Below are positions 2,241-56,887 of a stretch of 64,000 nt of DNA, one piece after another. The stretch is from Candidatus Multivorans sp. (GTDB lineage: Bacteria > Acidobacteriota > Thermoanaerobaculia > Multivoradales > Multivoraceae): positions 1,440,001-1,504,000 of the forward strand of contig OZ251997.1 of the NCBI GenBank assembly GCA_965247095.1, written 5' to 3'. The notes below the pieces were generated by a model. It had not been told where the DNA came from, made no database searches, and worked only from the letters and a program-made list of their open reading frames with translations. Made by a program: the position numbers and the translations under genes. The stretch's first letter is position 1. Every line of letters begins with the position of its first letter.

Positions 2241-3617
2241 CGGCGGCCGCGTCCGGTAGGCGCCTCGGGTGAAGTCCGGGAACTCGACCGGCTCGCTGCC
2301 CCGCGCCACCGAGAGTTCGCTCAACTCGACCGGCGCCGACAGCGCGGCCGCATCGTAGACGTCCATGTCGGTCGGCGTGCCCTCAAGCAGGCAGCGCACG
2401 AGGCGGTAGTCCTCGAGGTAGTCCATGCCGCCGTGGCCGGCGCCCTCGGCGTCGTCCGCCTGCTCCGACCACAACGGGTGTTCGAAGCGCTCCCGGTAGG
2501 GCTCGACGTCGCTCCAGTCGTGCCCTTCGGCCTCGCCCTCGATGAATACGCGGTCCGGGAAGCCCGCGAACACGCCGCGCGTGCCCTGCACCAGGTTCAG
2601 CCGGCTGTATGGCCGGGGCGTCGTCGTGTCGTGCTGGAGCAGGATGCTGCGCCCGCGGCGCGTACGGATCAGGCTGGAGTTCATGTCGCCGAGGGCGTAG
2701 CGGACCTTGGCCCGCGGGTCGTCGGTCCCGAAGCGCTCGGCCGCGTAACGCGCCAGACCGCGAGCCGGGCTCGAGAGCGACACGAGGTAGTCGAAGCAGT
2801 CGCCCCGGTTGATGTCCATGCACTGGGCCACCGGTCCGAGGCCGTGGGTCGGATAGAGGTTCGCGTTCCGCTCGACCGAGTGCTGCAAACGCCAAAGGCC
2901 CTCGTTCGCATCGGAGAACTTGATCGACCGCAGGTCGTGGATGTAGGCCGCCTCGCCGTGCAGGAGTTCGCCAAGCAGGCCCTGGCGCACCATGTTGAGG
3001 ACCATCATCTCGCTGCGGCCGTAGTTGCAGTTCTCCATCATCACGCAGTGGCGTGCCGTGCGCTCGGCGGTCTCGACCAGCCGCCAGCAGCCCTCAAGCG
3101 TGATCGCGGCCGGCACCTCGACCGCGGTGTGCTTGCCGGTCTCCATCGCCTCGACGCAGACCGGCACGTGCCAGCGCCAGGGCGTCGCGTTGAACACCAG
3201 ATCGACGTCGTCGCGCTCGCATAACCGCTTGAAGTCCGTCTCCCCGCGCGTGTAGAGCTCCGGCGCCTCATTCCCGGCGTCGACCACCCAGGACGCGACC
3301 TCCTCGGCGCGCGGCTCGTCGATGTCGCACACCGCAACGATGTCGACACCGTCGATACGGAGGAAGTTGCGGACGTGGCCGCCGCCCTGGAGACCGACGC
3401 CGACGAAGCCGATCCGCACACGCTCGAGTGGCGGCGCGGCGAACCCCGCGCGATAGGCCTCGACCGCCGGGTCGGCCGCCTGTGGTCCGGTCTGCCGGCC
3501 GACCGGCTCCTGAGGAGTTGCGGCGCGGGCGCGCACTGCCGCTGCGGCGGCGGCCGGGCCCACCCATGCCGCCTTCAACAGCTCACGGCGCCCCCACCGA
3601 GGTGTCCACCTGCTCAT
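2223..3617 (-). CDS. Tat-exported Gfo/Idh/MocA protein, GH109 alpha-N-acetylgalactosaminidase-like
   Basis: GRRELLK twin-arginine signal, IGFVGVGLQG Rossmann motif, EVP, MENCNY, YPTHG and GHGGMD motifs; start placed at MSRWT. Confidence 0.85.
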   Translation of the reverse strand: MSRWTPRWGRRELLKAAWVGPAAAAAAVRARAATPQEPVGRQTGPQAADPAVEAYRAGFAAPPLERVRIGFVGVGLQGGGHVRNFLRIDGVDIVAVCDIDEPRAEEVASWVVDAGNEAPELYTRGETDFKRLCERDDVDLVFNATPWRWHVPVCVEAMETGKHTAVEVPAAITLEGCWRLVETAERTARHCVMMENCNYGRSEMMVLNMVRQGLLGELLHGEAAYIHDLRSIKFSDANEGLWRLQHSVERNANLYPTHGLGPVAQCMDINRGDCFDYLVSLSSPARGLARYAAERFGTDDPRAKVRYALGDMNSSLIRTRRGRSILLQHDTTTPRPYSRLNLVQGTRGVFAGFPDRVFIEGEAEGHDWSDVEPYRERFEHPLWSEQADDAEGAGHGGMDYLEDYRLVRCLLEGTPTDMDVYDAAALSAPVELSELSVARGSEPVEFPDFTRGAYRTRPPLGIVA

Positions 3618-55096: not shown

Positions 55097-55209
55097 TCCG
55101 GAGCCGTGAGCACGCACCCGCCTGCGGCGGGGCCATAGGGGGAGGGGCCCCAGCGGTCCTTCGCGCTCGGAGGAGGATGGAAGGGGGTGCGCTCACTTCA
55201 CTCCGCTTG

Positions 55210-55215
55210 TATTTT
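55210..55215 (+). promoter_or_regulatory. -10 box (TATTTT) of the IS110 circle-junction promoter
   Basis: Sits 17 bp from TTGACT (56550-56555) once the ends are joined. Confidence 0.7.
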
Positions 55216-55380
55216 GGACTTCCAGTCCGGGGAGGGTGAGATCAGGTTCTTCAAGCAGTCCGCAGCCGCCGGGCCTGTGGAGAACGCGTTGTTTTGCGGA
55301 TTTCGCTTGCATGCGTCGCAGCGAGGGTACGTCGGGCGCCGCAGCGAGTTCAGATTTTCCCCGCCGCTCGCGGGGGATGG

Positions 55381-55554
55381 CCGCCTCGGGGCCTGGCCAG
55401 GCCCCGAGGCGGGCGGCGGGTCGGACCGTTTTCACTCCGTGGGCTTCAGGCCCGGGAGCGAGCTTGGTCGGCCCGTCGCGACCCATCCTGCGCGTCCTGA
55501 ACGGATGCATGGGCTCGAGGCCCGCATAACCAACAAGCGAAGGAGACCCAGGAC
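55381..55554 (+). ncRNA. IS110 bridge RNA (5' hairpin, target-binding loop, donor-binding loop); 5' end uncertain
   Basis: Perfect 32-nt palindrome 55381-55412; target loop gacc..ttcactccgt-gggc/gccc-ggagcgagc..ggtc; donor loop gtcctg..acggatgc-gggc/gccc-acaagc..caggac. Confidence 0.85.
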
Positions 55555-56523
55555 ATGGCCAACCAGAGACTACACGCGGTTGCCGGCATCGATGTAGGCA
55601 AGCACTGGCTCGACGCCCACATCGACCCGCTTGACGTAGCGCGGCGCTTCGAGAACACGCTGCCCGGCCGCCGCGCCCTGCGCAACTGGCTGCGCAGAGA
55701 GGGCGTCCGCCGCGCGGTCTTCGAACCGACCGGCCGCTACCACCGCCGGCTGCACCAGTGTCTGGCCGCGGACGGCTGTGAGACCGTCCTGGTGCAACCG
55801 GCCCGCGCCCGGCGCTTCGCCCAGGCCTTCGGCAAGCTCGCCAAGACGGATCGCGTCGATGCCGCGATGTTGGCCCGGTTCGGGCGCCTGGAAGGCCTGG
55901 AGGCCACGCCGCCAAAAACGGCTAATCTGCGCCAACTCAAGGATCTCGTGCTGATCCGGCGGCGCTTCGTCGACGAGCGCGCCGACCTGGGAAAGCTGGC
56001 GTCGGAGCTCGAATCGAAGGCCGGCCTGCGGCAGGTACGTCTGCAACTGCGCTCGCTCGACACGCGCGTCGAGGCCCTCGATGGGGCCATTCTCGCCGCG
56101 ATCGATGCCGATGAAGAGCTGAAACGCCGCGCCGAAGTGCTGCAGTCGATCCCCGGCATCGGCCCGGCCACGGCAGCCAGCCTGGTCGCCGACATGCCGG
56201 AACTGGGGAGCCTCGACCGGCGTGCCGCCGGTGCCCTGCTCGGAGTAGCCCCCTGGGCCTGCGACAGCGGCCAGCGCCAGGGCCGCCGCCACGTGCGAGG
56301 CGGCCGCGCTGCGCCGAGGCGCGCCATGTTCATAGCCGCCCTGGCGGCGATCCGCTTCAATCCCCCTCTCCGCGACTTCTACCGCAGACTCCGCGAACGC
56401 GGCAAGGAGCACAAGGTCGCCCTCGTCGCCGTCATGAGAAAGCTCGTCGTGCTCGCCAATGTCCTGCTGCAGCAAGACCGCCTCTGGTTGCCCGAACCGC
56501 CCGCGGCGACGACGCCAGCATGA
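55555..56523 (+). CDS. IS110 family DEDD recombinase/transposase
   Basis: GIDVGK, FEPTG, KTDRVDA, SIPGIG, DSG catalytic Ser, MRKL. Confidence 0.95.
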   Translation: MANQRLHAVAGIDVGKHWLDAHIDPLDVARRFENTLPGRRALRNWLRREGVRRAVFEPTGRYHRRLHQCLAADGCETVLVQPARARRFAQAFGKLAKTDRVDAAMLARFGRLEGLEATPPKTANLRQLKDLVLIRRRFVDERADLGKLASELESKAGLRQVRLQLRSLDTRVEALDGAILAAIDADEELKRRAEVLQSIPGIGPATAASLVADMPELGSLDRRAAGALLGVAPWACDSGQRQGRRHVRGGRAAPRRAMFIAALAAIRFNPPLRDFYRRLRERGKEHKVALVAVMRKLVVLANVLLQQDRLWLPEPPAATTPA

Positions 56524-56549
56524 ACCCCCGAATTCACCGGCCACTAACC

Positions 56550-56555
56550 TTGACT
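56550..56555 (+). promoter_or_regulatory. -35 box (TTGACT) in the IS110 right end
   Basis: 15 nt before the element end. Confidence 0.7.
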
Positions 56556-56677
56556 CCCAACACGGATGCTCGCTCCGACTTGGTGTCGGTTTGTGTGAGC
56601 ACGCGGGGCGTCGCTCGCTTCGAGCCCGCTGGGCCCCCTTCGCAGGCTGGACGTTGTCGGGCGGCCGGGTCTTCCCA

Positions 56678-56887
56678 ATGGCTGAGCGCGGCTTCGTCGG
56701 CACGTACCACCGGATGTCGCCCAAGCACTTGCACCGCTACGTCGCGGAGTTCGTGGGACGCCAGAACCAGCGCGAGGAAGACACACTCGACCAGATGCTC
56801 GACATGGTTCGCGGCATGATCGGACGACGGCTGATGTACAGCAGCCTCATTGAACCGAACGGCCTACCGTCAGGAGCGCGCCAGTGA
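56678..56887 (+). pseudogene. IS1595 family transposase, C-terminal fragment
   Basis: RGFVGTYHRMSPKHLHRYVAEFVGRQN...RLMYSSL. Confidence 0.8.

Follow-up and report, generated by a model that had tools for sequence, protein, structure and literature searches.

Does the region upstream of an IS110-family transposase gene encode a bridge RNA whose guides can be read against its own target and donor, and, if so, at which dinucleotide would strands be exchanged? The question is raised by a locus in a stretch of 64,000 nt of Candidatus Multivorans sp. (Acidobacteriota; assembly GCA_965247095.1, contig OZ251997.1, positions 1,440,001 to 1,504,000), which we call the window and whose positions we use throughout. 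An initial annotation of this locus had proposed four readable guides and a GC core in place of the CT core of IS621. We find there a single insertion sequence (IS) of the IS110 group, 1363 bp long when one core copy is counted. It is probably a structurally intact element with a canonical bridge RNA and a CT core, inserted at ttcactccg-CT-cgctcc. We base this reading directly on the sequence of the element, its boundaries, the conservation of the RNA scaffold, the covariation of guides with flanks and ends, and the catalytic residues of the transposase.

The genome is assembled in one contig of 4.6 Mb and holds one copy of the element. Hence, the comparison of boundaries among other genomic copies, which the initial annotation had suggested as a check, was impossible, and relatives were compared in their place. 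These were retrieved from genomes of the same genus, from 80 loci on genome contigs and from 26 metagenome loci. The 80 genome-contig loci are titled Thermoanaerobaculia, Acidobacteria and Bryobacterales metagenome-assembled genomes (MAGs), and their protein identities are 51-85%. The element and its parts lie on the forward strand, while the flanking repeat and target sequences are given without a strand.

An IS110-group element in a palindromic repeat

The sole open reading frame between the proposed ends (55555-56523, forward strand) encodes an IS110-family RNA-guided transposase of 322 aa. It matches the profiles PF01548 (DEDD_Tnp_IS110, E = 3.5e-20, 72.8 bits for a cutoff of 29) and PF02371 (the Tnp domain, E = 1.1e-16), as well as the NCBIfam equivalog NF033542, 'IS110 family RNA-guided transposase' (199 bits for a cutoff of 140). 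The nearest solved structures, according to phmmer, are those of the transposases of IS621 (8wt6, E = 1.2e-28) and ISCro4 (9t56, E = 1.6e-27). The native catalytic residues of IS621 are D11, E60, D102, D105 and S241 (PMC11208158). All five align with residues of the window protein, namely D13, E57, D99 and D102 (the DEDD residues) and S238 (the catalytic serine). For this matching we used an offset of +2 in the chain numbering of the IS621 structure, which is our own count. The full-length frame, the family profiles above their cutoffs and the aligned catalytic residues bear out the earlier description of the element as intact.

The gene is preceded by a non-coding left end of 347 nt that carries the bridge RNA (55208-55554) and is followed by a right end of 45 nt (56524-56568). 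A long left end combined with a short right end is a feature of the IS110 group. The two CT core copies, at 55206-55207 and 56569-56570, were placed by homology with the junctions of relatives. The junctions read ...ccG-CT-tgtat on the left and acggatG-CT-cgctcc on the right. Outside them lie the two halves of a palindromic intergenic repeat of ~165 bp (55112-55205 and 56571-56639), with the insertion point at its centre. The last 9 nt of the left half, ttcactccg (55197-55205), make up the left target, i.e. positions -1 to 7, and the right target is cgctcc (56571-56576).

The empty site can be reconstructed from paralogous copies of the repeat, of which at least 14 are uninterrupted in the same genome. 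When the left flank through 55207 is joined to the right flank from 56571, the product matches 14 uninterrupted paralogous repeats with 67-79% identity. One repeat copy (L003, 1501-1620) reads ...cacttcactccgctcgcttcgg..., which is the reconstructed empty site with one mismatch. Another copy of the family is found in L005 (1440-1570), and the repeat variants TTCACTCCACTCGCTCC and TCCACTACGCTCGCTCC occur in two and three copies, respectively. A second exact copy of the 17-mer target was not found in the genome, where three sites have one mismatch and four have two; six of these seven near-targets are flanked on both sides by repeat sequence in the printed context. Insertion into a palindromic intergenic repeat is usual for IS110 members.

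We also compared the contigs assembled from four sequencing runs of one sample. One contig of low depth (depth 2) agrees with the left flank up to 55207, where it passes into cgctccgg and from there into unrelated sequence. We considered the possibility that it represents an excision product and set it aside, reading the contig as another copy of the repeat.

Four guides match the flanks and the ends

Four short segments of the left end correspond to the sequences at the junctions. The left target guide, uucacuccg(u) (55431-55440), is identical over 9 nt to the left flank (55197-55205), and its last base, U55440, could wobble with the complement of the core C. The right target guide, ggagcg followed by ag (55455-55462), is complementary to CT-cgctcc (56569-56576). 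On the donor side, the guide acggaugc (55501-55508) is identical to the terminus of the right end (56562-56569, positions 1-8), which comprises the left donor acggatg (56562-56568) and the first core base; its position 9 is an A, a mismatch. Finally, the right donor guide acaag (55533-55537) is complementary to CT-TGT, i.e. to the core and 55208-55210. The initial annotation had quoted the right guides as ggagcgagc (55455-55463) and acaagc (55533-55538), and the flanks as ttcactccgc (55197-55206) and tcgctcc (56570-56576). Exact-match scans showed that every string and coordinate it quoted was correct.

Such complementarities might be chance matches in GC-rich DNA beside an ordinary transposase gene. 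Taken one by one, the 8-9-mers are indeed about as frequent in the window as in shuffled sequence (observed against expected counts: 2 and 0.59 for TTCACTCCG, 3 and 2.85 for GCTCGCTCC, 3 and 3.43 for ACGGATGC). However, the four matches fall within 108 nt, in the correct order, on the correct strand and in the structural context of conserved stems, and the reconstructed empty site is present uninterrupted elsewhere in the genome. Moreover, the same positions change together with the flanks and the ends across 50 related guide/site combinations. This refutes an origin by chance, which we hold to be extremely improbable.

These combinations were obtained by parsing the guides of 90 records (the window and L007-L095) with anchors on the conserved motifs of the ends and stems. 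Parsing succeeded for 60 records, and 30 were skipped because at least one sequence anchor was missing; collapsing duplicates left the 50 combinations (L023 is identical to L007 and was counted once, while L008 and L015 duplicate L024). With the register fixed, the seven bases 5' of AGC in the right target guide matched their own right flank at 4.28 of seven positions in the 50 cognate pairs, against 1.45 of seven in 2122 non-cognate pairs. The longest exact run between the 5' loop and the left flank had a mean of 5.40 in cognate and 3.75 in non-cognate pairs. The window itself scores six of seven right-flank positions and nine contiguous left-flank bases.

The donor side behaves in the same way. 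The relatives have three types of donor ends, each with its matching donor loop: acggatg-CT-tgt is found with ACGGAUGC and ACAAG, acggaag-CT-ttt with ACGGAAGC and AAAAG, and acggata-CT-tgt with ACGGAUAC and ACAAG. Since the guides covary with flanks and ends in relatives, the four guides first read from the window are, judged by this sequence comparison, real.

One locus, L018, combines sequences of two variants (junctions near 1155 and 2501). Its left flank agrees with its own left guide over a run of 10, whereas its right flank matches the guide of a co-resident sister variant (L020/L021) at five of seven positions (by eye) and its own at three of seven. The pattern may result from a bridge RNA acting in trans, or from recombination between variants.

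The RNA scaffold is conserved

We aligned the ~180 nt 5' of the start codon in 20 representative relatives. In this alignment, invariant stems surround hypervariable loop positions. The structure, obtained with RNAalifold and curated by hand, consists of four helices: a 5' hairpin of 14 bp, a target-loop stem of 15 bp, a donor-loop stem of 7 bp and a donor-loop hairpin of 5 bp. Among the 816 cells of the 20 relatives, 96.7% are paired, against 32.6-46.9% when the partners are slid by 1-3 columns. Both sides have changed in 15 of the 41 pairs, and the observed covariation score was reached in none of 500 shuffles. The compensatory changes are concentrated in the 5' hairpin (helix 1), where 12 of the 14 pairs have changes on both sides. 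Helix 2, the target-loop stem, is paired at 99.7%. In the closing stem of the donor loop (helix 3), five pairs are invariant and hence uninformative. The conserved scaffold and its covariation confirm the claim of a bridge RNA in the left end, with loop hairpins, closing stems and four guides that can be read.

In the window, the scaffold begins with a perfect 32-nt palindrome that forms the 5' stem-loop, with 14 bp in the RNA (55381-55412). The target-binding loop follows (55413-55479), with a closing stem at 55413-55428/55465-55479 and an inner hairpin at 55441-55453. The donor-binding loop (55486-55553) contains helices 3 and 4, i.e. an outer stem at 55486-55492/55547-55553 and an inner hairpin at 55511-55523. 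Both inner hairpins are of the gggc/gccc type (55441-55444/55450-55453 and 55511-55514/55520-55523); since the alignment is out of register at the target loop, its hairpin was identified by visual inspection of the loop sequences. Two alternative structures were discarded. The minimum free energy fold of the single sequence paired both target guides together and was set aside for the alignment-based structure. Some inner donor-loop pairs proposed by RNAalifold (columns 120-122/137-139 and 125-126/133-134) would bury the left donor guide, had no compensatory support and were excluded.

Some further observations concern the same region. The 32-nt palindrome coincides with the point where the contigs of all four sequencing runs end and restart (55383-55410). 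The segment 5' of the canonical bridge RNA (55216-55378) has additional hairpins with compensatory changes in relatives, and the window and L007 have ~40 extra nt in this part of the left end. A scan of Rfam retrieved nothing at the gathering threshold. The nearest family was RF02234 (sX15), on the opposite strand (27.1 bits for a threshold of 55, E = 0.067), and sX15 gave no match at E <= 0.01 in nine relatives. The sub-threshold match (55398-55552, minus strand) lies exactly over the bridge-RNA region. In Xanthomonas, sX15 and asX7 have been described as plasmid RNAs complementary to each other, and 10 homologues are reported from a Stenotrophomonas chromosome (PMC3300014). Such an occurrence pattern would fit an IS-borne RNA.

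GC core or CT core?

The initial annotation placed the core at GC, where the left and right guides overlap. The sequence common to the two junctions is in fact GCT (55205-55207 and 56568-56570), and most of the relatives share CT alone. In 45 of the 56 distinct rows compared, target and donor have different bases 5' of CT (position 7), and CT is all that the two junctions have in common (the 45 include one doubtful row, L107; the 56 include L077, L089 and probably L107 on doubtful left-end matches, as well as L096, whose string for the right donor guide is a misplaced match). For example, the left junction reads C-CT and the right one G-CT in 42 distinct Bryobacterales rows. Two loci (L101 and L112) have a left end starting with CT-TGT like that of the window, yet combine a donor A7 with a target G7. 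At the first-listed right-end match of every locus except L094, a T comes directly after ...ACGGA[A/T]GC. These comparisons do not support a GC core. Going by the aligned junctions, it is most likely a misreading, in which the overlap is made of position 7 and the first core base, the core being CT.

It could nevertheless be that the element is a distinct variant, as first proposed, which exchanges strands at GC, or at an extended GCT, shifted leftwards by one base from a CT of the IS621 type. All four guides cover the G and the C: the left target guide with its g and a wobbling u, the others as ggagcgaGC, acggatGC and acaaGC. L024 and a group of related copies (cluster F) have their core guide in the two bases just before the hairpin; read in that register, the window has GU there. 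Furthermore, none of the 20 representative relatives has a left donor guide that pairs with the T at position 9. The guide base there is G, A or C, never U, and thus left donor guides cover only the first core base in this clade. Yet neither the donor ends nor the register of the donor loop differ from those of relatives that share only CT, and the AGC with which the right target guide ends on its 3' side, found in all 20 representatives, is likewise the same in them. The T is kept at both junctions across the clade, and the structures of IS621 account for a nearly invariant T at core position 9 (PMC11208158). Finally, in 51 of 56 rows the 'extra' C of both right guides varies together with the partner's position 7, which is what a handshake guide should do. 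We therefore regard a GC or GCT variant as quite improbable.

Several points weigh against the CT reading. The three bases GCT are common to both junctions, so that the window copy alone has no power to place the exchange. Donor and target both have a G at position 7, which leaves no cognate mismatch there before exchange. The left target guide raises another difficulty. In the closest relatives whose loops are readable (L024, L016, L096 and cluster F) it ends with ...G-CU directly 5' of the loop hairpin, but with ...CCG-U in the window and ...CCG-A in L007. The guide of the window is thus one base off register and leaves the core T uncovered; read as in L024 and cluster F, its final G and U would fit GC.

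In the window, CT is present at both junctions within the shared GCT, and only the two right guides pair with the core T. Bryobacterales loops have a third spacing, with CU-C before the hairpin, so that the spacing of the left guide varies within the clade. As models for the left target guide, the Bryobacterales register and that of cluster F and L024 both fail to fit the 9-nt match of the window and were rejected. An effective exchange region of GCT, or one shifted to GC, seems unlikely to us also for the acggatg-CT-tgt subfamily. If true, such elements would be natural bridge recombinases that follow a looser core rule and whose built-in preference for insertion over excision is much weaker than that of IS621.

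Probable handshake guides and a matching G at position 7

With CT as the preferred core, the C that follows each right guide finds a role in a known component of the bridge RNA. The bases 3' of the core-pairing AG in right guides have been described as 'handshake guides', which pair with positions 6-7 of the partner after exchange of the top strands (PMC11208158). In the window, the handshake guide of the target loop is C, U (55463-55464). Its C belongs to the invariant AGC and pairs with the donor G7, which is invariant; here it also pairs with the target G7. The handshake guide of the donor loop, C, G (55538-55539), is complementary to the target positions 7 and 6 (G, C). Its first base pairs with target position 7 in the 51 rows mentioned above, a G facing a target C and a C facing a target G.

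Eight distinct rows have a matching G7 in target and donor: the window, L007, L096 and five cluster F copies; inspection by eye gave the same for L024 and L016. For IS621 and IS622, identity of donor and target at this position has been described as disturbing the handshake, and designs avoid it (10.1101/2025.05.14.653916). In IS621, the number of handshake pairs rises from one to three on exchange, which favours insertion over excision (PMC13626964). By our own count, Watson-Crick handshake pairs rise from two to three in the window and from zero to three in the multi-copy families of Bryobacterales. In the acggatg-CT-tgt subfamily, donor and target always share G7, so that both handshake guides can pair before as well as after strand exchange. 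From the very few lineages compared, one may speculate that the matching G7 is linked to the low copy number of the G7 subfamily.

One Bryobacterales chromosome (L049-L092) holds at least 23 copies of one subfamily and six of another. Many of these copies lie in the same repeat contexts, and their handshake is fully asymmetric, unlike that of the single-copy element of the window.

Putative expression signals at the ends and in the donor loop

The two ends carry the halves of a putative promoter: a -35 half, TTGACT, in the right end (56550-56555) and a -10 half, TATTTT, in the left end (55210-55215). When the right end is joined to the left end, TTGACT stands 17 nt from TATTTT. In IS621, a promoter is likewise rebuilt across the junction of the right and left ends (PMC11208160). 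The split motif TTGAC[A/T]-N17-TAT[N]TT is present in 19 of the 20 representatives, and in the remaining one, L040, the -10 half is TATAGT; these are matches to a consensus. The flanks upstream of integrated copies show nothing comparable by eye, and no promoter-like site was found in the integrated sequence.

The start of translation is embedded in the donor-binding loop. A Shine-Dalgarno-like aggag (55541-55545) lies inside its 3' side, 9 nt 5' of the ATG, and the start codon begins one base 3' of the 3' strand of the closing stem. This arrangement is common among relatives: purine tracts and a CAGGA stem are present in 20 of 20, and 19 of them have a start codon 0-1 nt behind the end of this stem. 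The exception, L060, is without an ATG at the aligned position. From this layout, it is plausible that the RNA, when folded or bound by protein, occludes translation. A second inner stem of the donor loop (CCUG with CAGG/AGGA) is possible in most relatives and hints at sequestration of the ribosome binding site; it shows no covariation and is broken in the CCUC variants.

Proposed mechanism and present mobility

Homology with IS621 suggests how the element would function, and it is in this way that we infer its transcription, its cleavage positions and any present activity. Circularization would join TTGACT of the right end and TATTTT of the left end into a promoter. The transcript of the left end would then contain the 5' hairpin, the target-binding loop, the donor-binding loop and, directly after it, the transposase gene. 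In this scheme, the right target guide would read CT and six bases of the right flank, while the donor loop would read the terminus of the right end (acggatg-c) and that of the left end (CT-tgt). Exchange would take place at the canonical CT, the G before it being position 7, which by coincidence is the same in donor and target. After exchange of the top strands, the C behind each right guide would act as the handshake guide and pair with position 7 of the partner.

Is such an element still mobile? It might have the canonical architecture and yet be an immobile resident relic, whose guides remain readable because the insertion is young or the site conserved. The single copy in 4.6 Mb, the lack of a second exact target (the best free sites have one mismatch) and the state of relatives in the same genus all speak against an active element. 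Among these relatives, G015 has a TAG stop, G025 is split in two frames, and G012 and G024 are fragments. The left target guide, moreover, is without core complementarity. However, the reading frame of the window is open, of full length and has all catalytic residues. The loops, the guides and the two halves of the promoter show no damage either, and the guides match nine of nine positions of the left flank and six of seven of the right. We thus consider an immobile relic a possible but rather doubtful interpretation, and continue to favour an intact element.

Other mobile elements nearby

Two neighbouring elements were noticed in the course of the analysis. Directly downstream of the repeat, 56650-56887 encodes a C-terminal fragment of an IS1595/ISXO2-like transposase (PF12762, E = 8.8e-06, 26.2 bits, slightly below the cutoff of 27), without a full gene. 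The IS copy in L017 has group II intron domains (RF02003, 90.5 bits) ~230 nt downstream of it, at 2728-3001 on the minus strand.

Comparison with known systems

Most of the features of the family that can be read in sequence are present, and the element would work like IS621 of E. coli (structures 8wt6-8wt9). Both have a DEDD RuvC-like domain followed by a Tnp domain with the catalytic serine, and both have a long left end that encodes a 5' hairpin, a target loop and a donor loop. Their left guides read the bottom strand and their right guides the top strand, and the promoter rebuilt at the junction is common to them, as are, in all probability, the CT core and the handshake guides. The differences are mostly in the reach of the guides. 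The right target guide pairs with six bases past the core here and with two in IS621. All four guides of IS621 cover the core (PMC11208160), whereas here the left donor guide covers only its first base and the left target guide reaches no further than position 7 or 8. The protein is also distant (phmmer E = 1.2e-28), the left end has ~347 nt with extra 5' hairpins while the bridge RNA of IS621 has 177 nt, and donor and target share the G at position 7.

ISCro4/IS622 (structure 9t56, E = 1.6e-27) has the same family assignment and domain order, a CT core and handshake bases, but its design rule avoids a matching base at position 7, and a matching G is found in the window element and seven related insertions. 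ISPpu10 and ISPpu9, which target repetitive extragenic palindromic (REP) sequences, also insert into multi-copy palindromic intergenic repeats. They are found in Pseudomonas, a different host phylum; the relatives here are Acidobacteria, Thermoanaerobaculia and Bryobacterales MAGs. The IS1111 group has a transposase of the same family, with its seekRNA in the right end. It has long right ends and long subterminal inverted repeats (PMC11208160), while the window element has a right end of 45 nt and its RNA in the left end.

The element had initially been called a distinct ortholog, on account of the overlap of its guides on GC, its long right target guide and its left end of ~350 nt. The last two lie within the variation described for the family (PMC11208160). 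Little is new in principle, since handshake guides, extended left ends and extended right target guides are already known. The value of the locus is that it provides a clean natural bridge-RNA element from the Acidobacteriota, in which target, donor, guides, handshake guides and split promoter can be read and checked against ~50 related insertions. The point of most interest is the matching G at position 7, a configuration that the design rules of IS621 and IS622 avoid. The subfamily that carries it could show how far the asymmetry of the handshake constrains natural elements.

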